In this document: positions 38,105 through 61,892 of the stretch, in pieces
Layout: each line of letters starts with the position of its first letter
How positions within the stretch are numbered: position 1 is the first letter of the stretch
Virus record (IMG/VR): IMGVR_UViG_3300042472_000301
Span: 28,901-92,900 of that record
From: a virus
Length of the DNA: 64,000 bases
Reading direction: 5' to 3' (one strand)
The notes under the pieces: model-generated
Told to the model about the DNA's origin: nothing
The model's input: only the letters and a program-made list of their open reading frames with translations
The model's database searches: none
Position numbers and translations under genes: made by a program

Positions 38105-38578
38105 ATGGGAAGGCCTAAGGGTTCAGGGAGTCTGTACACGCAAGAGCTCGCGGCTCACATCTGCGAGCGCCTGTCGATGGGTGAGACGTTGGTGAGCATT
38201 TTGCAGTCGCCGGGGATGCCAAAGCGCTCTACCGTGCAGCACTGGGTGACCGACCTGCCCGAGTTCGGAGAAATGTACGCGCGCGCGAGAGACGCAGGCT
38301 TCGACGTTTTGGCCGAAGACACCATCAGAATCATCGACGAGGAACCCGAGCGGATCACCGGCGAAGGGGGCGGTCGGCGTGACAGCGCCTACGTCCAGTG
38401 GCAAAAGAACCGCGTCGAGCTCAGGCTGCGCCTGCTCAAGAGCTGGTGCCCCAAGCGCTACGGCGATCGCCAAGTGCTGGTCGGCGAGGCCGAGAACCCG
38501 CTCACGTTGGCATTTACCCCCGAGACGCTCATCTCGCTGGCCGACGGCCTGCAGACCGAGCGCCAAGATGGCAAGTAG
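38105..38578 (+). CDS. terS: terminase small subunit (Sf6-like)
   Basis: GRP...YT.E.A..ICE.L..GE.L..I.....MP..STV..W...F...YARAR; GGAGG RBS; directly upstream of TerL. Confidence 0.8.
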   Translation: MGRPKGSGSLYTQELAAHICERLSMGETLVSILQSPGMPKRSTVQHWVTDLPEFGEMYARARDAGFDVLAEDTIRIIDEEPERITGEGGGRRDSAYVQWQKNRVELRLRLLKSWCPKRYGDRQVLVGEAENPLTLAFTPETLISLADGLQTERQDGK

Positions 38579-39999: not shown

Positions 40000-42900
40000 A
40001 TGAGCCGTATTAAACGAGCAGTCAAGGGTTTTATCGATCCCATTACCACGAAGGTGGAAGACTGGAAGTGGCGGGCGCTTGCTGACGTCGACAAGGAGCT
40101 CAAGCTCAAGGAAGTACCCGACTACATTCAAGGCGGCTACGGCGGCTTCATGGCCGACCAGCTCAAGCGCGCAGAGGCCGGCGACCTTAACGCCCGCGAC
40201 CTCATCAAGGCGTACACCATTACTCAGTCATCGATCGGGCGCGGTGGCCTGTCGCACGCGACGGCAACCAAGCGCGGCTTGAAGCTGCCCGACACCGGGG
40301 GTGAAGTGCGCCCCGAGGGTGCCTTTGCCGAGTGGCTGGGCTCGCCCTTAGGGCAGCGCTACCTCGACATGGCCGAGCGCGGCGAGCTCGATTCCAAGGC
40401 GCTCAAAGAAATCCAAGCGGCGTTCGCGCCCTTTGGCAAGCAGAACGATCAGGTGGCCAAGATGGAGTGGGCGGCGCAGAACCTGCCCGGCATGGCCACC
40501 GACCTCAATACCCGCGTGACCGGTTCGCTCGGCGACTGGCGCAACTACACCGACGAATTGCGCGGCATCGCGGCCGCCAAGTCTGGCTTCGTTGGCTCGC
40601 TGCTCGGCCGCGGCGACGTGCCCACGCTGGACGCGCGTCAGCTCAACCTGCACGGCACCACGCCCCCAGTCGGGCTGGGCTCGATTCAGAACCGCGGGGG
40701 CGGTACAGGCGGGCGCGAGCTCGTCGATCGCCTGAGCGCACGCCAAGAGGCGCTGGGGCTTAAGCTCGACCCAAGCCTTGACCCGTTCTACCAGCACCTT
40801 GGCCACCACGCCGTCTGGGACAAGATCGGCAACACAGAAACCACACATGCGGACTTGGTGCGAGCGATGCGCGACTACAACAAGGGCGGTGCCGTACACA
40901 TGGCTGGCGGCAGCTTAGTCAAGAAGGCTGCCAAGGCCGCCACCAGCCGCATTGACATGAACTACAAGGACGTGACTCAGCGCACGCCTGAGCTGCAAGA
41001 TGCGGCCAACAAGCTCATCGGTGGCGAGCTCTCGGCGGCCGAGTACGACGCGCTGGTCAACCAATACAAACCCGTCACGCCCTACGCCACGGTGCCCACA
41101 CCCGCCACGCGCGAGGAGGCCACCGGCGCACTCACGGCCGATAAGCGCGAGCGCTACGGCCTGCCATCGCAGACGCTGGAGCAAGGCCACCCGGTCGGAC
41201 TGCGCCTTGACATCCCGTCGTACAGCAACCACGGCGTCTGGGTGCCCACCGTGCACGAGCAGGAACCCGGCTTTGGGGCTGGCAAGAGCATCGGGCACGA
41301 GAGCGTGGCAAGCGTGCTTAACCCGCAGTTTGGCATGTCCGAGAAGGCCGCGCTGGCCATCGCGAGCGGTAAGCCCAAGGGCACGATCGCAACGATCAAG
41401 GGCGACTGGAATAAGCTGAGTGAGCAGGAGGCCGTCGAGCGCGCAAAGGAGTACCTGAAGAGCCCCGAGTGGCGTCAGGTGGGCATGGATCCCGAGCGGC
41501 ACTCGTACTTCTACGACCGCGCGACTATGCAGCCCGTCACGAGCGCCGACGAGGCGCTGCAGATCGGTCCGCTCGTGCTGGTGAAGAACCCCGTGTATGG
41601 CAAGAAGGAGGACTTTAAGTACGCCGCGGGCGGGATGGTTGACTCGGTGCCCGAGGAGGCGATCAAGAACATGGTTAAAGACCCACAGGCAGCACGACTG
41701 CTCGACCTTGATCTCGCCAAGTACGCGCTGATGAACCAGCCGCAGAAGATGGCCGCGGGCGGTATCGCGCGCATGGCCGGCGGTGGTGCGCGCAAAGTAG
41801 CTAGGGACGCCTCAAGTTCAATTTTGAACAAAGGGTTTGAAGCACTGGAAGCGCAAGCAGCGCAAGCAGCCGCAGCCAACACGATTAAAGCCGCCGACCG
41901 GGCAGCAGCCGGGCGCGCAGCGGCAGCACAGATTGAAGCCCAGCCTGAAGTACCAATGTCAGAGGCGCTGGGCAATCTGAACACCGAGGGCAAACGGATA
42001 GTTGGCACCCAAGCCGATCGTACCCGCGTTGGGGGCGGCAACATTGGTGGTGCTCCCTTTTCCGCAATATCGCTGGCCGATCCTAACTACCAAGGTAAGG
42101 TCTGGGGCGTGGGTAGCCAAAGCGCTGCAAGTACGCTCACTAATCAAAACGACCCACGCACAATTTGGACAACACTGCTGGGTTCAAAATTCCAGCTTAA
42201 GACCAATCCGATTGTGTTTGCCAAGCTTGAAAAAGAATTTAGACAAGCAATGAAAGACGGGAAACTAAGCCCCGAGCTCGAAGCCAAGATCAATCACAAC
42301 TTAGCGCTTAACTTTGGCGAGGGCGCTGACATCCGCGATCCGAACATTTGGAAGGCAGCCGACAGCTTTGATCGCCGCGCGGCATTGTCCGATATCATGA
42401 TCGGCGAAGGCATCCCTCCTAGCAAGGGCGGCGTAGCGTTGGGCGGCGCGAAGAGCGGCAAGGGGGTTATTTTTGATCCGCTTAGCATCCTCACTCGTGA
42501 GACGGAGCCCAGCCTTCGCGGCGATGTACCCACCTTTTCGCTCGGCCCGCGTCTGTTCACGATGAGTGGCGAGACGTCGTTTCGCCCTGACTTACATCCC
42601 GGCTTTCCAATGCTGCTTCACGGCGAAGACCTTGGGTTTAACGTGCGTCCGGTGCCCAACGAGATTGCGCTGCCTGATTATCGTACCGAGTTTGCACGAC
42701 GTAATCCTACGCGCGATCCCAGCTACTACGATCTGACCAAAGGCTTTAAGGGTGAAGGCCTGCCCAGCCAGATGATCACTGAAGAGTGGTTGAGTCATTT
42801 GCAAAAGCACGGCCATAAGGACGGCGGCGCGGTGCATATGAAGGACGGCGGCAAGGCCGACGAGGACCTCTTCGCGCTCAAGCCCCAGCCCAAGCCGGCC

Positions 42901-45900
42901 ATCCCGACGGTGCGAGAGCTCGTTGCTGAGATCGGCAAGAACCCTGCGCGCTACGAAGCACCATACCCACCCAAGGATGCTACGCCGCTGAGCTTGCAGG
43001 CATATCACCTGATGCAGGCCGCCAAGACGACGCCCGACGCTAATCGCTACCTCGAGTCGTTGAACCCGTACTTTGATTCGCAACTTCGCTTTGACATCGG
43101 AGCGGGCAGCGACGCAGGCTACGTGAAGTTCAAGGAGCCGAACATCGCGGTGATGCAGAAACTCGAGGACGTGAAGAACACGATCCCGCATGAGCTCACG
43201 CACACGCTGCAGCTCGGCAAGGGCGCGAACGTTAACCTTGAGCGCGACCGCCAAGTCATGCAGCGTGCGCAAGGGTTGCCCGCTGCAACGCAACAAAGCG
43301 TGCTGCCTTCAACAAATCGTTTTGAGAACATGAAGGAAGTCTGGGCGAACATCAACGCTCGGGCGCATGAGGTTAACGCAGCGGGCGGTGACTTCATCAA
43401 CACACCCGAGGGCAGGGCGCTCTTCCCCACACCTGAGGCGCAGCGCGAGTACTACACGAAGTCGATGCCGGGCGTGAACAGCATGACTCCTAGCACTGGC
43501 ACATTTGTGCCGAATCGCCGATATGGTGAAGGCGGTGGTGTATTTAACCCACAGGGGTCTGACTACGACTACCAGACGGCTCGCGCTTACGGCATGGGAC
43601 AAGGGGACAACGGTCATTGGGGCTCGGTCGCACCCGCGTCAGAAAGCGAGCGCAAGCTGCACGGCTTGCCCGAGGACAGCTACCTCATGCTCAAGGGCGC
43701 AGAGCACCCAACGTGGAGTAAGGCTGTTGAGGCAGAAGAGTCTCGCGGCTCAAAAATCGTCAAGTACGGCGATCGCTACTACTCTGTGCCCAAGAAGGCC
43801 AACGGCGGTCAAGTGCAGCGTTTTGATGACGGCGGCGAAGTCAGCCAGTCAGAGCTTGATCGCATGCGCTTCGAGATTGCACAACAACAGAACCCTAGCA
43901 GCCCTGTCATGCAGGCGACGCCACGCAGCCCGATACAGGACGCCATCGGCACGTTCGGTGGCTACATGGATCGTGCCGGCAAGTTCGTGAGCGAGGCGAT
44001 TGCGCCGACCGCCGAGAAGCACCCGGTCAAGCATTTCCTCGCGGATCTGATTCTGGCTTCGTCGCTCAAGAGCGCCGGCACCGCGCTGCAGGACTACACG
44101 GGCACCGCACGCGAGGCAGACGAGGACAACCCCGTGCGTGGCCTCATCGACAAGGACTGGCGCAAGCTCAGCACAGGCACCGAGCCGCTGCTCGACCCGC
44201 GGGCGCTGGACATCGCGGGCTTTGCAACACCAGTCGTCAGGGGTGCAACGAAGCTTGCCCGAGTGGGTGCGAAAGCCGTTGCCCCGTTTGCAACGAGGGT
44301 CGACGACATGGTGCGTGAACTCAGCGCGTCAGGCGCGATCCCGCAGCCGGGTCTATCTATCAAGGATGTCACCCCCAAGGTGCTCGCCCCCGCCAACGCG
44401 CAGGGGTTCTACTCGCCGACCGAGGCGGCGGCATTGAACCTGCAGCGCCAGTCTGGCAGCGGGCAGGCGTTGCTAAATGACATATTAAAGGGCGAGAACG
44501 TGCGCGCGGAGGAGGTCAGCGGGATGGGGCTCGATACGTTCTTGAAGGACAAGCCCAACGCTACGGCCGCCGAGGTGCAGGACTACATCGCCAAGAATAA
44601 ACTACAACTGGGCGACAGGACCTACAAAAAAGAAAACGTGACGTGGGGCAAGAATGAAAACGGCGAGATAGTCACTGAGAACTTGCCGAACCCGTACACG
44701 ATTTCAAGCGAGTACGGTAAGACGTACATCACCAATTCCAAAAACAATACGTTAGGCATAACGTTTAAAAACGAGGCAGAAGCTAAGAAGTACATCGAGG
44801 ACTTGGTCGTCGATGACGCCCTGCTGCCCAACGACCTGAAGTGGGCGCAGTGGTCACTACCCGGTGGCGAGAACCACCGCGAAGTCACCCTGAACCTGCC
44901 AAGCGGCAAGCGCGAGGACATGGTCTACAAGGAGCAGAGCCTTGAAGCGCTCAAAAGAGGGGCGCTAGATTACGCGGCAATGGGCGACCTCAGCAGCGCC
45001 AAGCAGCTCTCAACAAGAGCCGAGAAGCTCGAGCGCGAGATCGAGCAGTTAAAGCGTCAACCACAGAACCGCACGCCCGAGTTTCCCAAGCAAGCCGAGA
45101 TTGATGACTTAGACGCGCGCATGGCGCAGCTAAAGGCCGAGGGTAATCGTGAAGAATTTGGCAAGCTACAGAGTGAAAGAACCGAGCTGCGTGCTGAGCG
45201 CAGTGCGTACTTAGCGCGCGAAGAAGCGCGGCTTCAAAAGGAAGCATACGCAAATCAATTCCGCGAATCGCACTGGGAGGACCCCAACGTGCTTGCCCAC
45301 CTGCGCATGAGCGACCGCGTGACCGACGGCAAGAAGACGCTGCTGGTCGACGAGTTGCAGTCCGACTGGCACCAGAAGGGGCGTGAGCGCGGCTACAGGG
45401 GCGATGAGATTGACACCAAGGGCTGGACGGTCGAGAGCCTCTACGTCACCAAGCCGGAGGAGGTCGCCGTATATGACGCCCGGGGTAAGGAAATCTGGGC
45501 GGGTAAGTCAAAAGGTGACGAGGCACAGACCATAGCAAAGGTCGTGGAGGAGTTAAAGAAGAAGCAGGTACCACAGGCACCCTACAAGGACGACTACTAC
45601 CAGCTCGCGTTACGCCGTGCTATTAAAGACGCGATTGACGGCGGCTACGACCGCGTGGCGCTGCCCACGGGTTCGCGTGTGGCCGAGCGGTTTGGCACGG
45701 GTAGTCGCATCGATCGTCTTGACTACAACAAAAACTCCGACGGCACCTACGGCATGTCGGCCATCAAAAACGGCCGCGAAGTCGCCGCAAGGGAGTACCT
45801 TAGCGAGGACGAGTTCTTCGGTCTTATTGGCAAAGATATTGCAAAAAAAGTTGTTGACGAGGAGGGTGGTGTATCTAAAGAGGTTAAGGGTCGTTGGGGA

Positions 45901-46212
45901 CCTGATGACGACTACTTTGAAAATTTCAAATCGCTTACAGGCCTTGACCATGTTATTGGCGGCAAGGGCATGAAGAAGTACTACGACGAGATTTACCCCG
46001 GCTACCTCAAGAAGTTTGGCAAGAAGTACGGCGCAAATGTTGGCAACACAACCGTTGACGCTGACGGCGTGGCCGAGCCTTTGTTCTACATGGACATCAC
46101 TCCTGCGATGCGCAAGGAGTTCAGCACTGGCATTCACATGAAGCGTGGCGGCAAGGTGTCGTTCGCCTCAAATGTTGACGCGATGCGTTACGAATTAAAT
46201 AAAAGGCAATAA
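40000..46212 (+). CDS. giant multi-module (polyvalent) virion-associated protein, 2070 aa
   Basis: Single ORF between TerL and portal; HELTH zincin motif, HhH-like module, ELQSDWHQ module, repeated xxGG linkers. Confidence 0.75.
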   Translation: MSRIKRAVKGFIDPITTKVEDWKWRALADVDKELKLKEVPDYIQGGYGGFMADQLKRAEAGDLNARDLIKAYTITQSSIGRGGLSHATATKRGLKLPDTGGEVRPEGAFAEWLGSPLGQRYLDMAERGELDSKALKEIQAAFAPFGKQNDQVAKMEWAAQNLPGMATDLNTRVTGSLGDWRNYTDELRGIAAAKSGFVGSLLGRGDVPTLDARQLNLHGTTPPVGLGSIQNRGGGTGGRELVDRLSARQEALGLKLDPSLDPFYQHLGHHAVWDKIGNTETTHADLVRAMRDYNKGGAVHMAGGSLVKKAAKAATSRIDMNYKDVTQRTPELQDAANKLIGGELSAAEYDALVNQYKPVTPYATVPTPATREEATGALTADKRERYGLPSQTLEQGHPVGLRLDIPSYSNHGVWVPTVHEQEPGFGAGKSIGHESVASVLNPQFGMSEKAALAIASGKPKGTIATIKGDWNKLSEQEAVERAKEYLKSPEWRQVGMDPERHSYFYDRATMQPVTSADEALQIGPLVLVKNPVYGKKEDFKYAAGGMVDSVPEEAIKNMVKDPQAARLLDLDLAKYALMNQPQKMAAGGIARMAGGGARKVARDASSSILNKGFEALEAQAAQAAAANTIKAADRAAAGRAAAAQIEAQPEVPMSEALGNLNTEGKRIVGTQADRTRVGGGNIGGAPFSAISLADPNYQGKVWGVGSQSAASTLTNQNDPRTIWTTLLGSKFQLKTNPIVFAKLEKEFRQAMKDGKLSPELEAKINHNLALNFGEGADIRDPNIWKAADSFDRRAALSDIMIGEGIPPSKGGVALGGAKSGKGVIFDPLSILTRETEPSLRGDVPTFSLGPRLFTMSGETSFRPDLHPGFPMLLHGEDLGFNVRPVPNEIALPDYRTEFARRNPTRDPSYYDLTKGFKGEGLPSQMITEEWLSHLQKHGHKDGGAVHMKDGGKADEDLFALKPQPKPAIPTVRELVAEIGKNPARYEAPYPPKDATPLSLQAYHLMQAAKTTPDANRYLESLNPYFDSQLRFDIGAGSDAGYVKFKEPNIAVMQKLEDVKNTIPHELTHTLQLGKGANVNLERDRQVMQRAQGLPAATQQSVLPSTNRFENMKEVWANINARAHEVNAAGGDFINTPEGRALFPTPEAQREYYTKSMPGVNSMTPSTGTFVPNRRYGEGGGVFNPQGSDYDYQTARAYGMGQGDNGHWGSVAPASESERKLHGLPEDSYLMLKGAEHPTWSKAVEAEESRGSKIVKYGDRYYSVPKKANGGQVQRFDDGGEVSQSELDRMRFEIAQQQNPSSPVMQATPRSPIQDAIGTFGGYMDRAGKFVSEAIAPTAEKHPVKHFLADLILASSLKSAGTALQDYTGTAREADEDNPVRGLIDKDWRKLSTGTEPLLDPRALDIAGFATPVVRGATKLARVGAKAVAPFATRVDDMVRELSASGAIPQPGLSIKDVTPKVLAPANAQGFYSPTEAAALNLQRQSGSGQALLNDILKGENVRAEEVSGMGLDTFLKDKPNATAAEVQDYIAKNKLQLGDRTYKKENVTWGKNENGEIVTENLPNPYTISSEYGKTYITNSKNNTLGITFKNEAEAKKYIEDLVVDDALLPNDLKWAQWSLPGGENHREVTLNLPSGKREDMVYKEQSLEALKRGALDYAAMGDLSSAKQLSTRAEKLEREIEQLKRQPQNRTPEFPKQAEIDDLDARMAQLKAEGNREEFGKLQSERTELRAERSAYLAREEARLQKEAYANQFRESHWEDPNVLAHLRMSDRVTDGKKTLLVDELQSDWHQKGRERGYRGDEIDTKGWTVESLYVTKPEEVAVYDARGKEIWAGKSKGDEAQTIAKVVEELKKKQVPQAPYKDDYYQLALRRAIKDAIDGGYDRVALPTGSRVAERFGTGSRIDRLDYNKNSDGTYGMSAIKNGREVAAREYLSEDEFFGLIGKDIAKKVVDEEGGVSKEVKGRWGPDDDYFENFKSLTGLDHVIGGKGMKKYYDEIYPGYLKKFGKKYGANVGNTTVDADGVAEPLFYMDITPAMRKEFSTGIHMKRGGKVSFASNVDAMRYELNKRQ

Positions 46213-46214
46213 CT

Positions 46215-48767
46215 ATGGCTACTGAAATGCCAATCCCGCAAGACTACGGCCGCTTCATCCCGCCCGCGGCGCAGGGTGACAACGAGTTTGCAAGCAGCGA
46301 GTTCGGTGACACCGCGGAGGTCGATCTGTTTGATCAACCCGACGTCGAGGAGCAGGACGACGGCTCAGCGATTGTGCGTCTAGATGATGACACGCTGGGG
46401 CCAGAAGACTCACCGGACTTCTACGAGAACTTAGCCGAAAGCATCCGTGCGTATGACTTATCGGGCATTGCGTCTAAGTACATCGAGCTCGTTGAGAAGG
46501 ACAAGGACGCCCGCGAGGGACGTGATAAACAGTACGAAGAGGGCCTGCGTCGCACGGGACTTGGGCAAGACGCCCCCGGTGGTGCGTCGTTTATGGGGGC
46601 GAGTAAGGTCGTGCATCCGATCATGGCCGAGGGCTGCGTGGACTTTGCGGCGCGAGCCATCAAGGAGCTCTTCCCACCAGACGGGCCAGTGCGCTCAAAG
46701 ATTCTGGGCGAGGTGACTGAGCAGAAGACGATGATCGCCGAGCGCAAGCGCGATTACATGAACTACCAGTTGACCGAGAAGATCGAGGAGTACCGTGACG
46801 AGGAAGAGCAGCTCTTAACCCAGTTACCGCTCGGTGGCTCGCAGTACATGAAGATCTGGTACGACGAGAGCAAGCGTCGTCCGTGCGCCGAGTTCCTGCC
46901 GATCGATAACGTGTACTTGCCCTTTGCCGCGGCGAACTTTTACACCGCGAGCCGTGTGACCGAGGTCAACGACATCACGCAGGACGACTTTGAGGCTCGC
47001 GTCTCATCAGGTCTGTACATCGATCTAGATATCTACCGTGCGAGCCAAGAGCCTGAGGAGAGTAAGCCTGAGAAGGCGAACAACAAGATTGAGGGTCGCA
47101 AGTCAGAGTCTGACAACATCGACGGCGTGCGGCGCGTGTTCCACATCTACACTTGGATGGAGCTCGAGGACGATCAGAAGTCCAAGGGCGAGCGTGCGCC
47201 CTACATCCTGATGATCGATGACCTGTCATCCGAGGTTGTGGGGCTGTACCGCAACTGGGAAGACGGCGACGAGCTCATGACTAAGCTCGACTGGATCGTT
47301 GAGTTTAAGTTCATCCCTTGGCGAGGTGCGTATGCAGTGGGTTTGCCCCATCTTATTGGCGGTCTGTCTGCTGCTCTTACTGGCGCTCTGCGGGCTCTGC
47401 TTGATTCTGCTCATATAAACAACGCCCCCACGATGCTTAAGCTCAAGGGCGGCAAGGTCTCAGGGCAGAGCATTGTTGTTGAGCCCACGCAGGTCACGGA
47501 GATCGAGGGTGCGCCGGGCGTGGACGACGTGAGAAAGATCGCGATGCCGATGCCGTTTAACCAACCCTCTGCGGTGTTGTTTCAGCTCTTAGGCTGGCTC
47601 ACATCGGCGGCTAAGGGTGTGGTCACCACGGCCGAAGAAAAGATCGCTAACGTCACCTCTAACGCCCCCGTAGGCACCACGCAGGCGCTGATCGAGCAGG
47701 GTGCTGCGGTGTTCTCATCCATCCACGCGCGGCTGCACACAAGCCAAGCACGGGTGCTCAAGATCATCGGGCGCTTGAACCGCTGGTACTTGGATGACAA
47801 CCCTGACGAGATGAGCCAAGAGTTAGGCGTCACCTCAAAGGACTTTGAGAAGAACTCTGACGTTGTACCAGTGTCTGATCCCCACATCTTTGCGGAGTCA
47901 CAACGCTATGCACAAGTACAGGCTCTCGCCGCACGCGCGCAGGCGAATCCAGACTTATACAATCGACTGGCTGTTGAAAAGCGAATTCTTAAGCAGATCA
48001 AGCTTCCTGATATCAATGAAGTGCTACCTGATCCGCAAGACGTTAAGGAAATGAACCCCGCGCTTGAGAACGTCGCCATGACGCTTGGTAAGCCCGTGGG
48101 CGCGTTTCCCAACCAAGAGCACTTAGCGCACATGCAAGTTCACTTGGACTACGCCAAGGACCCTATGTACGGCGCAAGTCCTATCATGGCCCCGGTGTTT
48201 ATCCCCGCGATGCTTGAGCACTTAAAGCAGCACTTGACGCTCTGGTACCTGAACTCGATGGACCGGTACGCATCCAATGCGCTAGGCGAGCAGTTTGACA
48301 TCCTGAAGGTGCAACCCATCATTCAGGAGGCGCAGAAATTGCTTGCAGCGAGCTCGCAGCACGTGCACCAAGACACGCAGCAGCAGTTTGCGGGTGTGGT
48401 GCCGATCATGCAGCAGATGATCCAGACCATCCAGCAACTCAAAGCGCAGCAACAGCCTACTGATCCGTCAGTGCAGGCGCTTGTTCAGACCCAGATGGCC
48501 GAGACTAACCGTAAGGCGGCCGATGATCAGGCTCGTTTACAGCTTGATGGCGCAAAGCTCGCGGCAGATACGAAGGCCAAGCAGGAGAAGAACGTTGCCG
48601 ACCAGCAGATTAAGGCGGCAGAGCTCACGCACGACATCAACTTACTCACGCTTGAGCAGCAGCACGAAGCACAGCGTCAACAACTCGCAGCACAACAGCA
48701 ACAACAATTAGCAGCACAACAAGCAGCACAACAATCCCAACCTGAAGCACCACCCCAAGGAGTTTAA
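46215..48767 (+). CDS. portal protein
   Basis: 850 aa; F.ENLAE, GASKVVHP..AE..V.F.ARA..EL.P..GPV, APVGTT.AL.EQG, Gln-rich coiled-coil C-terminus. Confidence 0.85.
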   Translation: MATEMPIPQDYGRFIPPAAQGDNEFASSEFGDTAEVDLFDQPDVEEQDDGSAIVRLDDDTLGPEDSPDFYENLAESIRAYDLSGIASKYIELVEKDKDAREGRDKQYEEGLRRTGLGQDAPGGASFMGASKVVHPIMAEGCVDFAARAIKELFPPDGPVRSKILGEVTEQKTMIAERKRDYMNYQLTEKIEEYRDEEEQLLTQLPLGGSQYMKIWYDESKRRPCAEFLPIDNVYLPFAAANFYTASRVTEVNDITQDDFEARVSSGLYIDLDIYRASQEPEESKPEKANNKIEGRKSESDNIDGVRRVFHIYTWMELEDDQKSKGERAPYILMIDDLSSEVVGLYRNWEDGDELMTKLDWIVEFKFIPWRGAYAVGLPHLIGGLSAALTGALRALLDSAHINNAPTMLKLKGGKVSGQSIVVEPTQVTEIEGAPGVDDVRKIAMPMPFNQPSAVLFQLLGWLTSAAKGVVTTAEEKIANVTSNAPVGTTQALIEQGAAVFSSIHARLHTSQARVLKIIGRLNRWYLDDNPDEMSQELGVTSKDFEKNSDVVPVSDPHIFAESQRYAQVQALAARAQANPDLYNRLAVEKRILKQIKLPDINEVLPDPQDVKEMNPALENVAMTLGKPVGAFPNQEHLAHMQVHLDYAKDPMYGASPIMAPVFIPAMLEHLKQHLTLWYLNSMDRYASNALGEQFDILKVQPIIQEAQKLLAASSQHVHQDTQQQFAGVVPIMQQMIQTIQQLKAQQQPTDPSVQALVQTQMAETNRKAADDQARLQLDGAKLAADTKAKQEKNVADQQIKAAELTHDINLLTLEQQHEAQRQQLAAQQQQQLAAQQAAQQSQPEAPPQGV

Positions 48768-48769
48768 TC

Positions 48770-49051
48770 ATGTCAGACGCAATTTCACAACACAAACGCA
48801 TGGCAATGGGCGAGTCTGTGCCTATGGCTAAGGGCAAGTCAGTCATTCAAAAGTACGCCAAGGGCGGCGCAGTCATGGCAGAGGGCGGCGCAGCTAATCT
48901 GCCAGCAAGAGGCGGCGTTCTAGAGCCAATGAAATCAACGGGCGCAAAGATTGCCAGCCTTAAAAAAGGCGGCGCAGTGCCTAAGAAGGGCATGGGCTTG
49001 ACGATCGCCATTGGCATCCCAGTGCGCAAAGCGGCCGGCCGTGGTCGTTAA
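48770..49051 (+). CDS. small basic protein with three xxGG motifs
   Basis: AGGAG RBS; YAKGGAV, MAEGG, LKKGGAV. Confidence 0.65.
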   Translation: MSDAISQHKRMAMGESVPMAKGKSVIQKYAKGGAVMAEGGAANLPARGGVLEPMKSTGAKIASLKKGGAVPKKGMGLTIAIGIPVRKAAGRGR

Positions 49052-49232
49052 CCCAGTCAGCGACCTGATCGGCAAGATAAAGGAGCGGCGCTTAGAGTTG
49101 GCGCTGTCGCTTGCTGACGGCTACGCGATAAATATTGAGTCCTATCATCGGCTTGTCGGAACGTATCAGGGCTTAGGTGAAGCTCTAGACATACTTGACG
49201 AGATTTTGACAGAGAAAGACGAAGATTTGTAA
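49041..49232 (+). CDS. small head-module protein
   Basis: Y..LVG.YQGL..AL motif typical of the gene before phage GroES. Confidence 0.6.
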   Translation: MVVNPVSDLIGKIKERRLELALSLADGYAINIESYHRLVGTYQGLGEALDILDEILTEKDEDL

Positions 49233-49302
49233 CGCCTTTAGCAAGCGGGGTCGGGCTTTTGATAAGGGTCACCGACCTAACCACTCGGCTTTAGAGTTGA
49301 CG

Positions 49303-49365
49303 CCTCGGAAAGACGAGGATAACCGCGCCGAATGGCGCTTTTAACCAAGTGCCGAATGGCGCTTT
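49303..49365 (+). repeat. hairpin plus duplicated 17-nt hairpin in GroES leader
   Basis: CCTCG-GAAAGA-CGAGG; G(C/T)GCCGAATGGCGCTTT at 49325 and 49349. Confidence 0.6.
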
Positions 49366-49376
49366 AAGGAGTAGGT

Positions 49377-49787
49377 ATGAAGGACTTTGAGACCCTCGAC
49401 GAGGCGTTCCCGCAGTGTGTGCACGGCATTACCCCACTGGGCGCTCGAGTGTTGTTACAGCTCAAAAGCGTCAAAAAAGCGAGTAAAGGCGGCATCATTC
49501 TAGTAGAAGAAACACGCGAAACTGAGCGTGCGCAGTCAATGATCGGCAAGGTCTTAGCACTTGGCCCGATCGCATTCAAAAACCGTGACACTTTATCCGA
49601 ATGGGGCGAAGGCATCTGGTGCCAAGTCGGTGATTACGTGCGCGTGCCTCGCTGGTCAGGCGATCGGTTCACGGTTCCCAACCCAAACAACGCAGAAGAC
49701 CAAGTTTCGCTGCAAATCCTGAACGATTTTGAGTTATGGGCAAAGGTTGACCCTGACCAAGTCTTAACCATGAGGCAATTCGTATGA
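49377..49787 (+). CDS. groES: phage co-chaperonin (GroES/Cpn10-like)
   Basis: PLGARVL, SKGGIIL, GKVLALGP, VGD.V. Confidence 0.85.
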   Translation: MKDFETLDEAFPQCVHGITPLGARVLLQLKSVKKASKGGIILVEETRETERAQSMIGKVLALGPIAFKNRDTLSEWGEGIWCQVGDYVRVPRWSGDRFTVPNPNNAEDQVSLQILNDFELWAKVDPDQVLTMRQFV

Positions 49788-50734
49788 ACTCAACAGAAAA
49801 AATGGAAATGCAGGTTGACGAGGAGCAAGACGGCTCCGCGATCGCCCAGTTACCCGAGGGCGAAGCGCCCGAAGCCGAAGAAAAACCCGAACTTGCCGAG
49901 GGTGGTGAGGTCGAAACTAACGACGGGCTCGATTCTGACCCCGATCGTGAGCAAATTCGTGCTGCCCGACGCGAAGAGCGCAAGCTCAAGAAGCAAATTC
50001 ATCGTGAAAAGACCAAAGAATCCAGTCACCTTATCAACAACTTAAGAACACAGAACCAGCAGCTCTCGGAGCGCTTAGCGCACCTTGAAAAGCGCACCTC
50101 GGGGGCTGAATTAGCGCGTGTGGACAAGGCGATTGACGACACCGAGGTGCAGATCGAGTACGCAAAGATGAAAATGCGTGAAGCGGTCGCAAATCAGGAC
50201 GGCGACGCAGTTGTTAAGGCTCAGGAGCTGATGTACGAGTCGCAACGCAAGGTCGAGTCGCTTAAATCTATCAAAGATCAGGCAACCCGGCAGATGTCGC
50301 AGCCACCTAAGCCCACGATGAACGTGCCCGACCCGTCTGTTCAGCGCAATGCCGCGGAGTGGATGGAGCGCAACCCGTGGTACGACCCACAGGCAAAGGA
50401 CATGGACTCTGAAATCGCTCAGCGCTTGGACAAAAAGCTCACCGACGAGGGTTACGACCCATCTTCGCCCGATTACTGGGATGAGCTTGATGATCGCGTC
50501 TCAAAGTACCTGCCGCATCGCACCGGCAATGCTGCACCGCAACGTTCTGCCCAACGCCCACGCATGACGGGCTCAGGGCGTGAGTCTGCACCAACTGGGC
50601 GCGGTAACGAGTTCAGGCTCTCTGCGGATCGTGTGCAGGCAATTAAGGACATGGGCGCGTGGGATAACCCCGATCAACGCGCAAAGATGATCAAATCCTA
50701 CGCAAAGTATGACCGTGAAAACAAAAGGAACTAA
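49784..50734 (+). CDS. capsid scaffolding protein
   Basis: Acidic N-terminus, long coiled coil, W..RNPWY, basic C-terminal helix; upstream of capsid genes. Confidence 0.7.
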   Translation: MNSTEKMEMQVDEEQDGSAIAQLPEGEAPEAEEKPELAEGGEVETNDGLDSDPDREQIRAARREERKLKKQIHREKTKESSHLINNLRTQNQQLSERLAHLEKRTSGAELARVDKAIDDTEVQIEYAKMKMREAVANQDGDAVVKAQELMYESQRKVESLKSIKDQATRQMSQPPKPTMNVPDPSVQRNAAEWMERNPWYDPQAKDMDSEIAQRLDKKLTDEGYDPSSPDYWDELDDRVSKYLPHRTGNAAPQRSAQRPRMTGSGRESAPTGRGNEFRLSADRVQAIKDMGAWDNPDQRAKMIKSYAKYDRENKRN

Positions 50735-50736
50735 TC

Positions 50737-51264
50737 ATGGATAGCCGCTTAAAACGCAGTGCCGGCGAGAGCCGCAACAACCGCACCGAGCAGGACGCAT
50801 CGCGTGCAGCGCCCGAGGAGAACTTTCCGATCGTGCGCGAGCGTCGTCGTGCGCGTAACGAGTTTCAGCAGACCGTGCTACCGAATATCCCCGAGATACC
50901 CGGATTTCACCTGTGCTGGCTCGCTACAAACAGCCAGTATGACCCGATTCACCGCCGGTTTTCACTAGGTTACATGCCTGTACGCGCCGACGAGATGCCG
51001 GGCTACGACATGTACAAGGTCAAGGAAGGCGATCAGTCGGGCCACATCATGTGCAACGAGATGCTGCTTTGCAAGATGCCGATGGATGTTTATCAAGACA
51101 TCATGCTCGAGCACCACCACTTCCAGCCGATGGACGAGGCCGACAAGATTCGCGTCGACCAAGAGCAACTCGTGAGCCAGCGCGACCGATCAGGCAAGGC
51201 GGCGGGTAGCATTGAGGGTAGCTTGCCAGATGAAAGTAACGTGAAATTGCCACACTTTAGTTGA
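50737..51264 (+). CDS. head-module protein of unknown function
   Basis: P.IPG.H..W, GY.PV...E, LLCKMP. Confidence 0.6.
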   Translation: MDSRLKRSAGESRNNRTEQDASRAAPEENFPIVRERRRARNEFQQTVLPNIPEIPGFHLCWLATNSQYDPIHRRFSLGYMPVRADEMPGYDMYKVKEGDQSGHIMCNEMLLCKMPMDVYQDIMLEHHHFQPMDEADKIRVDQEQLVSQRDRSGKAAGSIEGSLPDESNVKLPHFS

Positions 51265-51292
51265 AATAGTTTTACTTTTTGTAAAAACGTAT

Positions 51293-51396
51293 TAAAATCA
51301 GCATCAAGTCGCCCGTTTTGTATAAAGCGGGTGACAACAAAATTTAGTCCTAAAAATCATGTTTCAGATGATTTTGCCTGTAGCTTTGAAGAAAGC
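51293..51396 (+). promoter_or_regulatory. putative late promoter and structured leader of capsid operon
   Basis: TAAAAT; hairpins GTCGCCCG/CGGGTGAC, AAAATCAT/ATGATTTT and GCTTT/AAAGC. Confidence 0.5.
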
Positions 51397-51435
51397 GAAA
51401 ACATTATCCCTTTAACTGTTTTTTAGGAGCATCCT

Positions 51436-52023
51436 ATGAGTGCAACCTCTGCACCTTTTGGCCTGCGACCTGCGTATTTCCCAACAGGGTTGGAACGCGC
51501 ACAAGCACTGGCTAATGGAATTACTTCAGGCTACGGCACATCAATCCTGAAGGGTCAAGCTGTTCAGTACTCGCCTAACGCTGGCGTCATCTTGCCAGTT
51601 CTGGACACAACAACCAACAGCGGTCAAGTCTCTGGTGCCTTCGCAGGCGTCGAGTGGACTGACACAACTGGTCGTCGCCGTGTCTCTAACTACTGGCCTG
51701 CAAGCACTACTGCAATCGCCGGTAGCGTCGTCGCCTATTTCTACAACGATCAGCAGATCGTCTACGAAATTCAGACTGACGGCACAATGGCTCAGACGGC
51801 AGTCGGCAACGAAGCCAATCTGAGCAACTTCACTGCGGGCTCAACAACTACAGGTCTGTCGCAAATGACCCTGTCAGCCTCCTTGGCTGGTTCAGGCTCT
51901 GCAGCCCAGTTCCGCATTGTTGATCTGGCTCCCTATGTAGACAATAACTGGGGTGACCCATACGTGATCGTTCGCGTACAAGTCAGCAAACCACAGTTCG
52001 TTGCTACTGTTAACGCTATCTAA
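51436..52023 (+). CDS. capsid cement/decoration protein
   Basis: APFGLRP N-terminus, G.FAGVE.TD, YEIQ.D; directly before the MCP. Confidence 0.65.
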   Translation: MSATSAPFGLRPAYFPTGLERAQALANGITSGYGTSILKGQAVQYSPNAGVILPVLDTTTNSGQVSGAFAGVEWTDTTGRRRVSNYWPASTTAIAGSVVAYFYNDQQIVYEIQTDGTMAQTAVGNEANLSNFTAGSTTTGLSQMTLSASLAGSGSAAQFRIVDLAPYVDNNWGDPYVIVRVQVSKPQFVATVNAI

Positions 52024-52036
52024 GGGGGACTAGAAA

Positions 52037-52951
52037 ATGGCCGCTCCAATGCGCAGTACGGACTTCCGATCGATTGTTGAGCCAATCCTCAACGAATGCT
52101 TCGACGGAATCTATGACCAACGAGCCGATGAGTGGAGCACAGTGTTCCGCGAGCAAATGGGCATCCCAAGAAACTACCACGAAGAACCCGTCCTGTACGG
52201 TTTCGGCGCGGCACCTCAGTTACCTGACGGCACCCCCGTCTCGTACCAGCAGGGCGGCGTGCTGTTCCTCCAACGCTATGTGTACAACGTTTATGGCTTA
52301 GCCTTCGCGTTGACCAAAGTCTTGGTTGAGGACGGCGATCACATCCGTATCGGTCAGGTCTACGCTAAACACTTAGCGCAGTCGTTGATTGAGACAAAAG
52401 AACTGCTCGCAGCTAACGTATTGAACCGTGCGTTCAATAGCAGCTACGTCGGCGGCGACGGCGTCTCACTCACCAACACCTCGCACCCGATCGTAAACGG
52501 CGTGTTCAGCAACCAGCTCACGACCGCAGCTAACTTGTCGCAAACTTCGCTTGAGCAGATGCTCATCCAAGTGCGCCAAGCTGTGGACAACAACGGCAAG
52601 AAGATCCGTCTTCAGCCGCTGAAGCTGATCGTTGCACCGGGCAACGTGTTCCAAGCAGAAGTTCTGCTCAAGTCTGTGCTCCGTACCGGCACCGCCAACA
52701 ACGACATCAACCCAGTCAAGTCGATTGGTCTGATGCCCGAGGGCGCTTCGGTACTGAGCCGTTTGACTTCAGCCACCAACTGGTGGGTGCAGACTGACGC
52801 GCCAGAAGGTCTGAAGTTGATGATGCGCCGTGGTCTTGAAAAGACTATGGAAGGCGACTTTGAGACTGACTCAATGCGCTACAAGGCAACAGAGCGGTAC
52901 ACGATTTCGTGGACTGACCCTCGCGCAGTGTACGGGACTCCCGGAGTCTAA
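52037..52951 (+). CDS. major capsid protein
   Basis: 304 aa; EEP.L.GFG.AP, GGDGVSL...HP, KLIV.P, EGDFET...RYKA.ERY...W.DPR; followed by a terminator. Confidence 0.85.
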   Translation: MAAPMRSTDFRSIVEPILNECFDGIYDQRADEWSTVFREQMGIPRNYHEEPVLYGFGAAPQLPDGTPVSYQQGGVLFLQRYVYNVYGLAFALTKVLVEDGDHIRIGQVYAKHLAQSLIETKELLAANVLNRAFNSSYVGGDGVSLTNTSHPIVNGVFSNQLTTAANLSQTSLEQMLIQVRQAVDNNGKKIRLQPLKLIVAPGNVFQAEVLLKSVLRTGTANNDINPVKSIGLMPEGASVLSRLTSATNWWVQTDAPEGLKLMMRRGLEKTMEGDFETDSMRYKATERYTISWTDPRAVYGTPGV

Positions 52952-52960
52952 AGTAGAACA

Positions 52961-52989
52961 GGGGCTAGCATAAAACCTAGCCCCTTTTT
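52961..52989 (+). terminator. rho-independent terminator after MCP
   Basis: GGGGCTAG-8nt-CTAGCCCC-TTTTT. Confidence 0.8.
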
Positions 52990-53027
52990 CAATCAACCCG
53001 AGTGGTTCAAGCCACAGGAGATTAAAA

Positions 53028-54005
53028 ATGCCTCAGTTTTCAGACGACCTATTCTTAGGTTCCGCTATTACCGTTCAGGGTATGGATGCTTACCCTGCTG
53101 TCTCAACTTTTACTGGTTCAATTGCTACCACTACATTAACTGTCACCGCAATGCTTTCTGGTGACCCAATATTTGTGGGTATGTTTATTGACAGTTCAAC
53201 ATCACTTACCAATGGAACTTACATTACCGCTTTTGGTACAGGTTCTGGCGGTACAGGCACTTACACTGTAAGCGCCTCACAAACTGTAGCAAGCGCCACA
53301 ATCATTGGTTCTGGTAATGCTTTGTTGCAAAACCCATCTCCAATGAGCGTAGGTGTTGGTCCGGTGGGTCGCCTTTATGTTTGGGATGCTGTCCCACAGG
53401 CAAAACTGACAACAAACATCGTCGCCGCTGTTATCACAACTGCTACTACGCTCACGCTCGCAGCAGGTGCAGGCGTGACATCAGCCACGATCACAGGTGG
53501 CGGTACAGGCTTGCAACTCGACTGCCCTCGTGCGGTCTCTACGACCACAGGCGCGGGTAGCCCGACTACTGTAAACATTACTGTCTCTGGTTACGACTAC
53601 TACGGTCAAGCCATGAGCGAAGTCATTGCAACAGGAACAGTGGCATCAACAACCGTCAGCGGTAAAAAAGCCTTTTACCAAATCGCCAGTGTTGTCTCTT
53701 CTGGCGCAAGCGTGGTGACCGTCGCGGTAGGTACAACCGACATCTTAGGCGCGCCATTACGCATTACTGATGCTGGATACATTACTCGTGCAGGTTGGAA
53801 CAACACTCTAGCAGAAGATGCTGGTACTTTTGCAGCCGCCGCTACTTTGACGGCTACGACAACCACGGGCGATGTGAGAGGTACTTATTTACCTTCCTCT
53901 GCTTGTGACGGTATCAAACGTCTTGTAATGGGAATAGCCCTGCCAGCCATTGCGGCAGGTCCAAATGCAACCCGTACTGGCGCTCTCGGCGTCACACAAG
54001 CCTAA
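53028..54005 (+). CDS. virion structural protein
   Basis: Thr/Ala-rich beta protein; G.DYYGQ..SE, TGDVRGT. Confidence 0.6.
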
Positions 54006-54015
54006 GGGGTAGATC

Positions 54016-54570
54016 ATGGGTTTCAAAGAGATGAAGATGATGAAGTCAACCGAGCCCTCAGTTGATGAGGCCGGCAAGGGCATGAAGAAGGGCGGCAAGC
54101 TAAAGATGCAAATGGGCGGTGCAATGCCTACTGCTCCTCTAGCCGCTGCAGCCCAACCTATGGGTCGTCGTCCCATGCCCTCGCGCCCAGCAATGGGTCG
54201 CCCAGCAATGGGTCGCAAGCCTGATCCTCGCGCAGCAATGCTCGAGGCCGCGATGGCTCAGCGTGCAGGCGCTGGTGCTGCCCCGATGATGCGCAAGAAA
54301 GGCGGCGAAGTTGAGAGCAAGGCGATGCACATGAAAGAAGAGCGCCAGATCAAGGGCATCAAGAAAGAGCTGATGTCTCATGAGGGCAAGCCAGCGTCTA
54401 AGGCTCACAAGGGTCTTAAAACTGGCGGCATGCCCAAGTATGCAACTGGCGGCGTTGTTCAGAAGTACGCAACCGGCGGTGTTGTGCAGAAGTTTGCAGA
54501 CGGTGGCTTCGCTAAAGTAGCGTGCAAAGACGGCGGCGGCTTTAAGGCGATGAAAAAAGGCGGTTGCTAG
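54016..54570 (+). CDS. Lys/Met/Gly-rich protein with nine xxGG motifs
   Basis: MKKGG, MQMGG, RKKGG, LKTGG, YATGG x2, FADGG, CKDGG, MKKGG. Confidence 0.7.
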   Translation: MGFKEMKMMKSTEPSVDEAGKGMKKGGKLKMQMGGAMPTAPLAAAAQPMGRRPMPSRPAMGRPAMGRKPDPRAAMLEAAMAQRAGAGAAPMMRKKGGEVESKAMHMKEERQIKGIKKELMSHEGKPASKAHKGLKTGGMPKYATGGVVQKYATGGVVQKFADGGFAKVACKDGGGFKAMKKGGC

Positions 54571-54580
54571 TAATAAATCG

Positions 54581-54600
54581 GGGGCGGCTTCGGTCGCCTC
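54581..54600 (+). other. UUCG-tetraloop hairpin between genes
   Basis: GGGGCGGC-TTCG-GTCGCCTC, no U tract. Confidence 0.5.
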
Positions 54601-54620
54601 AACTCAGCCAAGGAATAGCA

Positions 54621-55400
54621 ATGGGTACATATTCGTCAGCAACTCGTCAGGGTGCGTACGAGCCGTTTGAATTGCAAGTCGCTCGTAATCAAGTTGATGG
54701 TCACAAAACTTTGTTTAAATTTGGCATCAACGGCGATGTCGGCACATCCGTAGAAACAGTTTGGGCGCAAGGCGGGACATATGTGTACCCCGCTTCTGCC
54801 ACGGTAATGAAAATTTCTAGTTCAAGCGCAGACGACACTTCTGCTGGAACTGGAGCAAGAACAATTGCTATTTTTGGTCTTGATGCAGATTACAACGAAA
54901 TTAGCGAGTCTGTTCTTTTAGATGGGCAAACAGCAGTCAACACTGGCAACAGTTATTTGCGTATTTCTCGTATTTATGTGACCACCGCCGGTTCTGGTGC
55001 AACTGCCGCAGGTACTATTTACGCTGGCACAGGCACTGTCACTTCTGGTGTGCCTGCAATTGTTTACGGCATGATTACCCTTACTGCAAACCAAACACAG
55101 ATGGCGTTTTGGACAGTGCCAGCAGGGTACACACTGTATTTAATGGGAACTTTCTTCACATCTGCAAACTCAACCGCAAACGCATCGACCAACTTTCAGT
55201 TGATTCAACGTCCACTTGGTGGTGTTTTTATAATACAAAGTTCAGCGCGTACCCCCGGTAATGGAGACTTCGTGATTGACCTGCACACCCCTTTGGCTTT
55301 TACTGAAAAGACAGACATTGAAATTAGGGCGATTGCTTCAGCGGGGGCTTCAAATGTCTCTGCTGAGTTTGAAGGCATCTACATCAAGAACCCAGACTAA
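54621..55400 (+). CDS. virion structural protein
   Basis: AAGGA RBS; KFG.N.DV....ETVW, SSS.DDT..GTGART...GLD..Y. Confidence 0.6.
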   Translation: MGTYSSATRQGAYEPFELQVARNQVDGHKTLFKFGINGDVGTSVETVWAQGGTYVYPASATVMKISSSSADDTSAGTGARTIAIFGLDADYNEISESVLLDGQTAVNTGNSYLRISRIYVTTAGSGATAAGTIYAGTGTVTSGVPAIVYGMITLTANQTQMAFWTVPAGYTLYLMGTFFTSANSTANASTNFQLIQRPLGGVFIIQSSARTPGNGDFVIDLHTPLAFTEKTDIEIRAIASAGASNVSAEFEGIYIKNPD

Positions 55401-55402
55401 TC

Positions 55403-55915
55403 ATGCCGAGCAAATCACCTGCCCAAAAGCGCTTGATGCAGGCCGCCGCTCACACTAAGGGTGGGTTCGGCGGTGTGCCTCAGAAGGTCGGTAAAGAGTT
55501 TGCGGCGGCTGATAAGATGAAAAGCGGTGGGCTATACGCCAACATCCACAAAAAACAGGAACGTATTGCTGCGGGCTCGGGCGAGCGTATGCGCAAGGTA
55601 GGCAGCGCAGGAGCACCGACCGCAGCAGCTTTTAAGCAGTCTGCAAAGACTGCAAAGATGAAAGACGGCGGTGATGTCTCTTTAGCAGTCGGTCGGGGCG
55701 AGAAATTGCCAACAGATCAGGGCGCGGGACTCACAGCCAAAGGTCGTGCGAAGTACAATGCAGCAACAGGGTCGAACCTGAAAGCCCCTCAGCCAGAGGG
55801 CGGTAGCCGTAAAAATTCATTTTGCGCCAGAATGTCTGGTGTAGTCAAGCACGCAAGCGGCGATGCGCCACGCGCAAAAGCCTCCTTAAAACGCTGGAAA
55901 TGTCCGGGGTGGTAG
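55403..55915 (+). CDS. three-module basic protein ending in a DUF6321-like domain
   Basis: MPSKS.AQ..LM..AAH / GLYANIH.K...APT...FK / GLTAKGR..YN..TGSNLKAP...SFCARM..W.C, separated by MKSGG and MKDGG. Confidence 0.65.
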   Translation: MPSKSPAQKRLMQAAAHTKGGFGGVPQKVGKEFAAADKMKSGGLYANIHKKQERIAAGSGERMRKVGSAGAPTAAAFKQSAKTAKMKDGGDVSLAVGRGEKLPTDQGAGLTAKGRAKYNAATGSNLKAPQPEGGSRKNSFCARMSGVVKHASGDAPRAKASLKRWKCPGW

Positions 55916-60850: not shown

Positions 60851-60859
60851 GGAATAGAT

Positions 60860-61882: not shown

Positions 61883-61892
61883 AGGAAAGAAC

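Follow-up and report, generated by a model that had tools for sequence, protein, structure and literature searches.

A recurrent Gly-Gly peptide at the joints of modular phage cargo proteins: a candidate processing site

We analyzed a 64,000-nucleotide stretch of viral DNA (termed the window here; bases 28901-92900 of the 92.9-kb contig IMGVR_UViG_3300042472_000301 of IMG/VR) in which one short peptide recurs in several proteins of a phage structural gene set. The peptide, which we term the "seam", has the consensus hydrophobic-A/K-x-G-G-x-V, spans 7-9 residues and is often doubled as GGxVH[ML]xxGG. It marks nearly every joint between the interchangeable modules of a giant, 2070-residue protein and its relatives. 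By analogy with cuts mapped in ejected proteins of other phages, the seam may be a processing site in polyprotein-like, probably ejected cargo, a reading that we favor over its rivals and to which we give a probability of roughly 0.4. The six seam proteins described here belong to the second structural gene set of the contig, called segment B below.

Occurrence of the seam in segment B proteins

An earlier note on this DNA, made from the sequence alone, had counted about 29 copies of the motif in six segment B proteins, and direct translation of the open reading frames (ORFs) reproduced this count almost site for site. The tally for single proteins was also recovered, with 11 copies in the 2070-residue protein, 1 in the scaffold, 9 in a 184-residue protein and 2 in a 170-residue protein; a 93-residue protein gave 3-4 copies, and a 1509-residue ejection protein gave 2-3 weaker ones. 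Sites in the 2070-residue protein read YNKGG/HMAGG, YAAGG, MAAGG/RMAGG, HKDGG/MKDGG, YGEGG, KANGG/FDDGG and MKRGG. Four of the carriers are as follows:

40000..46212, + strand: 2070-residue polyvalent-type cargo protein, between TerL and portal; 11 seams; modules shuffled among relatives
48770..49051, + strand: 93-residue basic post-portal protein, isoelectric point (pI) 10.9
54016..54570, + strand: 184-residue Lys/Met-rich protein, pI 10.3; 9 seams; ends KKGGC
55403..55915, + strand: 170-residue protein with MKSGG and MKDGG as the joints between its three small modules; DUF6321 is the last module

Enrichment was measured with the regular expression [FYMH][AK]xGG and 2000 composition-preserving shuffles of each protein. 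The motif stood 15-25 fold above the shuffled controls, with 6 copies observed and 0.33 expected in the 2070-residue protein, 2 and 0.08 in the 93-residue protein, 5 and 0.23 in the 184-residue protein, and 2 and 0.08 in the 170-residue protein (p <= 0.0025 for each); for the 1509-residue ejection protein the numbers were 2 and 0.23 (p ~0.02). No comparable excess was seen in TerL, portal, capsid or replication genes. The statement in the earlier note that the motif is missing from TerL, portal and capsid is accurate for TerL, which has no Gly-Gly at all, but must be qualified for the portal and the major capsid protein, each of which holds one look-alike. These are LKLKGGKVS in the portal (window 47439-47465, residues 409-417) and SYQQGGVLF in the capsid protein (YQQGGVLF at window 52247-52270, residues 71-78); both are invariant in relatives and lie inside the conserved body of the protein, and they may reflect coincidence or mimicry. 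The portal sequence LKLKGGKVS is close to the cargo tail MKRGGKVS.

The pairing of copies 7-9 residues apart, noticed at first by eye, is real: among 120 related proteins the spacing from one Gly-Gly to the next peaks at 8, with 69 pairs compared to 3-16 at neighboring spacings. The Gly-Gly codons are nearly always GGC GGC/GGT, with GGA making up 6/269 Gly codons. Two KYATGGVVQ units within the 184-residue gene differ at four synonymous positions and nowhere else, and the seams of the 93-residue family (KYAKGG and LKKGG) are invariant columns. The synonymous differences and the invariant columns suggest that the seam is selected at the peptide level.

Seams at the joints of the giant proteins

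Comparison of the 2070-residue protein to its relatives by BLAST resolved discrete blocks, namely M1 (~5-290), M2 (~310-547), M4 (~650-951) and a C-terminal block (~1752-2038). Modules M1, M2, M4 and M7b recur in differing orders among the relatives. Half of the homology-block ends map close to a seam (-6..+12 residues), a proximity shown by 7.9 +/- 2.6% of random positions. Features of the protein are given below, with the AlphaFold2 predicted local distance difference test (pLDDT) score for the first:

40876..40911, + strand: seam doublet 1, residues 293-304, YNKGGAVHMAGG; AlphaFold2 pLDDT 26-33
40912..41619, + strand: module M2, residues ~305-540
41620..41640, + strand: single seam KYAAGGM, residues 541-547; homology to relatives ends here
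41749..41787, + strand: seam doublet 2, residues 584-596, KMAAGGIARMAGG
42814..42852, + strand: seam doublet 3, residues 939-951, HKDGGAVHMKDGG; end point of module M4 in relatives
43189..43203, + strand: HExxH (HELTH) of a zincin-like module, the sole metallopeptidase motif in the contig
43795..43887, + strand: seam doublet 4 and an internal copy of the C-terminal tail, residues 1266-1296, KANGGQVQRFDDGGEVSQSELDRMRFEI
46138..46209, + strand: C-terminal seam and short tail, helical by sequence pattern, HMKRGGKVSFASNVDAMRYELNKRQ

Module M2 illustrates the boundaries. In an alignment of 22 proteins, conservation extends up to FxYAxGGxVHMxxGG, beyond which the sequences are unrelated, and four M2 relatives have an ORF that begins directly after the site of the upstream seam. 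Invariant residues of M2 include LRLDIPxY, HGVWV, DPERH and FYDR; no solved structural relative of the module was found (Foldseek E >= 0.25; VIA Z <= 3.1).

A census of modules was made by cutting 121 giant proteins at their seams and clustering the pieces. This yielded ~180 module families, with 125 singletons and none universal; M2 is the commonest, in 41/121 giant proteins. The only elements common to the giant proteins are the seam and a short C-terminal tail. Of 88 distinct giant proteins, 58 have their last Gly-Gly no more than 30 residues from the C-terminus (median 19), compared to 29/197 controls, and many giant proteins share the ending KKGGKVSFAxxxDAMRxEL... A copy of this tail, GGEVSQSELDRMRFEI, occurs mid-protein at residues 1278-1296 of the 2070-residue protein, which suggests that the gene arose via fusion of two cargo genes. 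The 2070-residue protein itself has zero Pfam hits, the HExxH motif being its one trace of a catalogued type, and Pfam revealed no MuF-type anchor domain in it; its homologs carry ART-PolyVal, LPD23, PcfJ, SLT, MuF, NUDIX and DUF6321 domains.

In an AlphaFold2 model of residues 285-600, M2 has pLDDT values of 80-96 and both flanking seam regions fall below 50, so that the seam is predicted to be disordered between folded modules. This prediction also suits a threading hinge, a flexible joint that would permit extended storage, module-by-module passage through a channel and independent refolding of a chain that is never cut. The confinement of the seam to physical joints is in keeping with a hinge, as is the lack of any protease in Pfam and PHROGs scans, and all classes of carrier discussed here (tape measure proteins, podophage ejection proteins and polyvalent cargo proteins) travel, or are thought to travel, via the tail channel. 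However, a hinge has no need for a near-fixed hydrophobic-A-x-GG-x-V-H-M across hundreds of divergent proteins, and it leaves unexplained both the proteins that are nearly all seams and the seams only a few residues from a C-terminus. We regard a pure hinge as unlikely.

Loss of the seam when genes split

Relatives of the 170-residue protein provide a comparison between modules that are joined and modules that are encoded separately. It has thousands of short relatives, of which the best 120 were examined. Where the DUF6321 module is fused to an upstream module, a Gly-Gly lies <=12 residues upstream in 50/51 cases; free-standing DUF6321 modules typically start MAKKxPSLAVGRGE and keep a Gly-Gly in front of the module in 4/79. 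On the other side of the joint, 30/34 free-standing upstream proteins keep their internal seam, and 17 of those 30 have no Gly-Gly in the last 14 residues, with a typical end, ...TAKVK, exactly where the seam would begin. The Gly-Gly is thus kept at physical module joints and lost on both sides once the gene splits. Since free-standing modules drop the Gly-Gly, a module does not need it in order to be used.

An address tag on each module should persist after splitting, whereas a cutting site or a joint should vanish, and we therefore rank cargo loading below processing. The earlier note had proposed a shared address tag or cleavage site for packaging polyproteins. The polyprotein part of that proposal is borne out, since the motif marks module junctions; cleavage is plausible by analogy with other phages, and the address tag is disfavored by the 4/79 and 50/51 counts.

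These comparisons also bear on the possibility that the seam is a recombination scar, a by-product of evolvability in which the coding sequence is kept as microhomology for module exchange and has no role in the protein. Modules are indeed swapped, reordered and split exactly at seams, and the uniform Gly-Gly codons would agree with it. Nevertheless, repeat units differ synonymously while the peptide stays the same, the motif is conserved between very distant phage groups, and its rapid loss after a joint splits implies that it was selected for a role there. A scar without function thus appears very improbable.

Small basic proteins and the scaffold

Strong basicity (pI 10.3-10.9) is common to the three small seam proteins. 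The family of the 184-residue protein is found after the capsid gene throughout the lineage and usually ends KKGGxC or KKGGKCNY. Among loci whose capsid proteins stay at >=88% identity, its counterparts range from 150 to 506 residues and carry 3-15 seams. Small basic seam proteins have a conserved Cys-containing tail (KKGGC, KKGGKCNY, KKMAKC or RWKCPGW; loci L125-L204), and the conserved terminal Cys hints at disulfide formation, metal binding or covalent linkage. A weak seam is also present in the scaffold-like protein:

49892..49912, + strand: weak seam LAEGGEV in the acidic N-terminal region of the 316-residue scaffold-like protein

A similar site occurs in 9/21 relatives. These proteins are relevant to a further alternative, that the seam is a docking or packaging handle, a linear motif binding the inner face of the capsid, the portal, the scaffold or DNA, with the multi-seam basic proteins acting as multivalent glue. 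The seam is the only element common to ~180 unrelated module families, it is multivalent in the basic proteins of 150-506 residues, and with the tail it forms the usual C-terminus; the weak scaffold copy and the failure to find a MuF-type anchor in the 2070-residue protein by Pfam would fit as well. Yet a single tag should be enough for each chain and almost all junctions have one, the seam occurs in tape measure proteins though they lie outside the head, and free-standing modules do without it. We consider a docking handle quite unlikely, and the C-terminal tail would be the likelier loading signal.

Distribution among related phages

The motif is kept in relatives: it was found in the metagenomic phage MW202545, in 120 multi-domain proteins and in at least 119 viral contigs. 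In MW202545 it occurs in the counterpart genes, which encode an 890-residue pre-portal protein, a 449-residue protein with ~17 copies and a 171-residue protein. The related Caulobacter phages are without counterparts of these three genes and without the motif. In Roseobacter phage CRP-207, the post-portal protein gp58 contains YAEGG, FAEGG and MAAGG as well as MKDGG at its C-terminus.

Longer relatives were sought with the 170-residue protein as the query, and the 120 multi-domain proteins obtained carry SLT, ART-PolyVal, MuF, NUDIX and DUF6321 domains. Their motif density is 2.7 per 1000 residues and their doublet consensus is [FY]A[EDK]GGxVH[ML]xxGG. A degenerate DNA pattern for GGxVHMxxGG matched at least 119 viral contigs, and in 119/119 of the contigs listed the match was in frame inside a large ORF. 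Among these 119 loci, TerL adjoins the giant ORF in 70 and the portal in 51. The listed loci share a conserved head module of TerL, portal, GroES-like, scaffold-like, ~181-residue, ~196-residue and capsid genes, and their giant ORFs are polyvalent proteins by Pfam (ART-PolyVal, LPD23, PcfJ and DUF6973). More than 595 relatives of the capsid gene were recovered from IMG/VR, and the top 80 show >=88% identity; judged by these related capsid loci, the lineage is very abundant.

Tape measure proteins and mapped cuts in other phages

The C-terminus of the 1509-residue ejection protein links the seam to proteins outside this lineage:

18552..18794, + strand: C-terminal element of the 1509-residue ejection protein, MMAEGGQAHGG ... 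SDDIPAMLADGEYVF; common to tape measure proteins

This C-terminus matches the tape measure family phrog_6090 and tape measure genes of Corynebacterium phage P1201, Arthrobacter phage EvePickles and a Nitrincola phage. In the 1509-residue protein, in these tape measure proteins and in the 580-residue protein of Caulobacter phage RW, hydrophobic-A-x-GG motifs stand on both sides of an element GxGxSDxIPAxLSxGE[YF]V. The presence of the element and its bracketing motifs in tape measure proteins indicates that the seam is older and wider than the present lineage and marks proteins that exit via the tail.

The earlier note had placed FATGG and YATGG near the end of the lambda tape measure protein gpH. 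This was correct: gpH reads KFHFATGG (FATGG at residues 733-737) and GYATGG (to 782), with QMRDGG near the end. Lambda gpH is converted to gpH* and gpHC by a cut that PMC12617516 places in the glycine-rich C-terminal region, which adjoins FATGG/YATGG, with neither site nor enzyme mapped there. A cut at FATGG would by calculation give fragments of 79.8 and 12.5 kDa, near the reported sizes. In phage T5, pb2 is cut after R1127 to give pb2* and pb2C (PMC10038345); the sequence at the cut, FVPR|AEGGMMYPG, lies beside the only Gly-Gly in the last 700 residues. The first 20 residues of P22 gp7 are removed before assembly by the host oligopeptidase A (Conlin, Vimr and Miller 1992, as cited in PMC4992974; GenBank note), and the sequence at that cut is SYPE|KGGKGGADK, so that the new N-terminus reads KGGKGG. 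In each of these two proteins the mapped cut precedes a Gly-Gly by 1-2 residues. The chance of such proximity is ~1% for T5 and ~7% for P22, by a rough count of Gly-Gly dipeptides per protein; the two cases were looked for once the idea had been formed, and their agreement with the motif is partial, so that they provide support rather than proof. They show that a cut adjacent to Gly-Gly in an ejected protein needs no phage protease. Neither cut falls after the Gly-Gly, as the ubiquitin analogy of the earlier note would imply.

The seam as a candidate processing site

Under the processing reading, the seam would be an exposed, disordered joint peptide in proteins that probably reside in the particle and exit via the tail channel. 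Cutting at the seams would free the single modules of proteins built like beads on a string and, from the basic proteins rich in seams, release short basic peptides; it could take place in the course of assembly or following injection. If T5 and P22 are a guide, the cut may fall 1-2 residues before the Gly-Gly. The tail after the last seam might bring the protein into the procapsid and then be removed, as in T4 internal proteins. With no phage protease found, the foremost candidates are a host enzyme, for example an oligopeptidase of the OpdA type, and a self-cut triggered by assembly. OpdA favors bonds flanked by Gly or Ala. A broader proposal is that the seam is a general maturation code for ejected proteins of tailed phages, read by a host OpdA-like M3 oligopeptidase or by self-cutting, and covering lambda gpH, T5 pb2, P22 and the polyvalent cargo of freshwater, marine and gut phages; this extension is speculative and we hold it to be improbable.

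Several observations weigh against processing. No protease family was found in the conserved head module or among segment B proteins by Pfam and PHROGs scans, and the remark in the earlier note that no prohead protease is recognizable agrees with the same scans of the head module. The zincin-like HExxH module is present in only ~10% of seam proteins. In 16/88 giant proteins the last Gly-Gly is <=10 residues from the end, and the 184-residue family ends KKGGxC; a cut so near a terminus seems pointless unless exposing or removing that terminus is the aim. The T5 and P22 sites are partial matches found post hoc, and a pure hinge equally predicts loss of the seam on gene splitting. Finally, the near-invariant His-Met of the doublet is left unexplained by every model considered.

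Candidates for a protease within the contig were also examined. The zincin-like module was rejected as a general seam protease: HExxH was found in 3/120 and 26/120 seam proteins, of which only ~12 were metallopeptidase-like, the rest reading GHEGRHR. A JAB/MPN (deubiquitinase-like, JAMM) protease was rejected as HxHx(6-12)SxxD is absent from every frame of the contig. The 175-residue protein p175 (50737-51264), with invariant G56, H58, C60, W61, L62, D69, N107, E108, M109 and H127, was tried as a hidden protease. It has no family match, and neither p175 nor p195 has a sequence match in the PDB. One of five AlphaFold2 models of p175 reached a pLDDT of 69.5, and this weak model gave no protease-like match (Foldseek E >= 0.3; VIA Z <= 4.9, to a long helix only; in the Atlas, unnamed viral clusters only).

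Four other explanations of the motif were discarded. Internal translation starts, with the Gly-Gly codons serving as a GGAGG Shine-Dalgarno sequence ahead of a spacer and Met, are ruled out by the use of GGC GGC/GGT. Mimicry of the GroES mobile loop (KGGIIL in the Cpn10-like protein) is not indicated, as seams lack three consecutive hydrophobic residues after the Gly-Gly. RTX nonapeptide repeats follow GGxGxDxUx, in which the fourth residue is Gly and the sixth Asp; the units here read GGVVQKYAT or GGxVHMxx. For a double-glycine leader exported by a C39 system the motifs are in the wrong place, being internal, and the contig has no C39-ABC exporter gene.

Genomic setting

The 92.9-kb contig contains two different complete sets of phage structural genes, segments A and B. 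They may reflect a chimeric assembly or two adjacent elements. Segment B corresponds to an RW/MW202545-like phage with its gene order wrapped around. Its capsid protein has 87% identity to that of MW202545, 78% to those of Caulobacter phages RW, RLK, KcrB and GB2A, and ~41% to those of Pelagibacter phage HTVC023P and Roseobacter phage CRP-901. Further features of the two segments are:

window 1 to ~10200 and upstream: segment A, with DNA polymerase, primase, 506-residue TerL, 720-residue portal and 402-residue capsid protein
38379..39992, + strand: large terminase TerL
46215..48767, + strand: portal
49377-49787, between portal and scaffold: Cpn10/GroES-like gene with a KGGIIL mobile-loop motif
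52037..52951, + strand: major capsid protein

The position of the Cpn10/GroES-like gene is kept across the lineage (21 loci), including the Caulobacter phages without seam proteins. It is followed by the genes for the 316-residue coiled-coil scaffold-like protein, the 175-residue and 195-residue proteins and the capsid protein. After the capsid gene come those for proteins of 325, 184 (54016-54570), 278 and 170 (55403-55915) residues, and then the adaptor. Four ORFs with long poly-glycine runs (<=8 Gly) in a repeated pattern are located at window 1397-2218 and 59792-62849. Such glycine-run fiber genes occur in both segments A and B; they presumably encode fiber or spike proteins unrelated to the seam.

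Relation to known systems and significance

The seam-bearing giants belong to the known class of polyvalent proteins. Like those proteins, they are giant and multi-domain, are encoded beside virion genes (in the order TerL, giant gene, portal) and shuffle effector modules combinatorially. Iyer, Burroughs, Anand, de Souza and Aravind (2017; PMC5512222) proposed that polyvalent proteins are processed into units after packaging or injection, and named zincin-like metallopeptidase (MPTase) domains as the processing agent. In contrast to that proposal, the MPTase-like module is rare here (~10%) and the seam is universal. A search of PMC5512222 by terms pointed to no junction peptide, and no published description of the seam motif was found in the literature searched.

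T5 pb2 and lambda gpH resemble the present proteins in exiting via the tail and in having hydrophobic-A-x-GG near the C-terminus, and the 1509-residue protein shares an SDDIPAxLxDGEYV element with tape measure proteins. T5 pb2 and lambda gpH differ in having one cut per protein and in belonging to tail rather than head assembly; moreover, the T5 site lacks a hydrophobic residue at -3, and the lambda site is unmapped. P22 gp7 offers a parallel as an ejected podophage protein cut by a host enzyme before assembly, but it loses a single N-terminal leader instead of being divided as a polyprotein, and its match to the motif is partial.

Cleavage next to Gly-Gly is familiar from other viruses of double-stranded DNA. 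The adenovirus protease adenain, at (M/I/L)XGG|X, and African swine fever virus pS273R, at GG|X, cut core or DNA-associated precursors within the particle. The likeness lies in hydrophobic-x-GG sites in a double-stranded DNA virus and in small basic peptides among the products. Those viruses use a dedicated clan CE cysteine protease, whereas none was detected among segment B proteins by Pfam or PHROGs. The seam also departs from the adenain consensus, (M/I/L)-X-G-G, in that its hydrophobic residue stands three positions before the first Gly, which for a cut after Gly-Gly would be P5 and not P4, and the phage precedents are cut before rather than after Gly-Gly.

Short peptides are likewise carried by unrelated cargo of HK97-fold shells, as in the T4 capsid targeting sequence, which is cleaved after loading, and the cargo-loading peptides of encapsulins. 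Those tags are terminal, present once per cargo and needed by each, whereas seams recur inside the chain and are lost where modules stand free. A better analogue of these tags is the C-terminal tail that follows the last seam. A short conserved peptide at the point where variable modules are swapped is also known from CdiA (VENN), Rhs proteins (PxxxxDPxGL) and polyubiquitin, and in Rhs and polyubiquitin the chain is cut there. Polyubiquitin ends in GG plus one residue, comparable to the KKGGC of the 184-residue family, although the sequences, proteins and biology of all three systems are unrelated to the seam.

Polyvalent cargo proteins are a main route by which phages deliver anti-defense and takeover enzymes. 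A universal junction peptide allows giant proteins of this kind to be parsed into modules by sequence alone. It also provides a concrete site for mutation and a direct proteomic test, namely new termini next to Gly-Gly. If the link to T5, lambda and P22 is true, the seam would bear on a 50-year-old question, which enzyme cuts gpH and pb2, and where.

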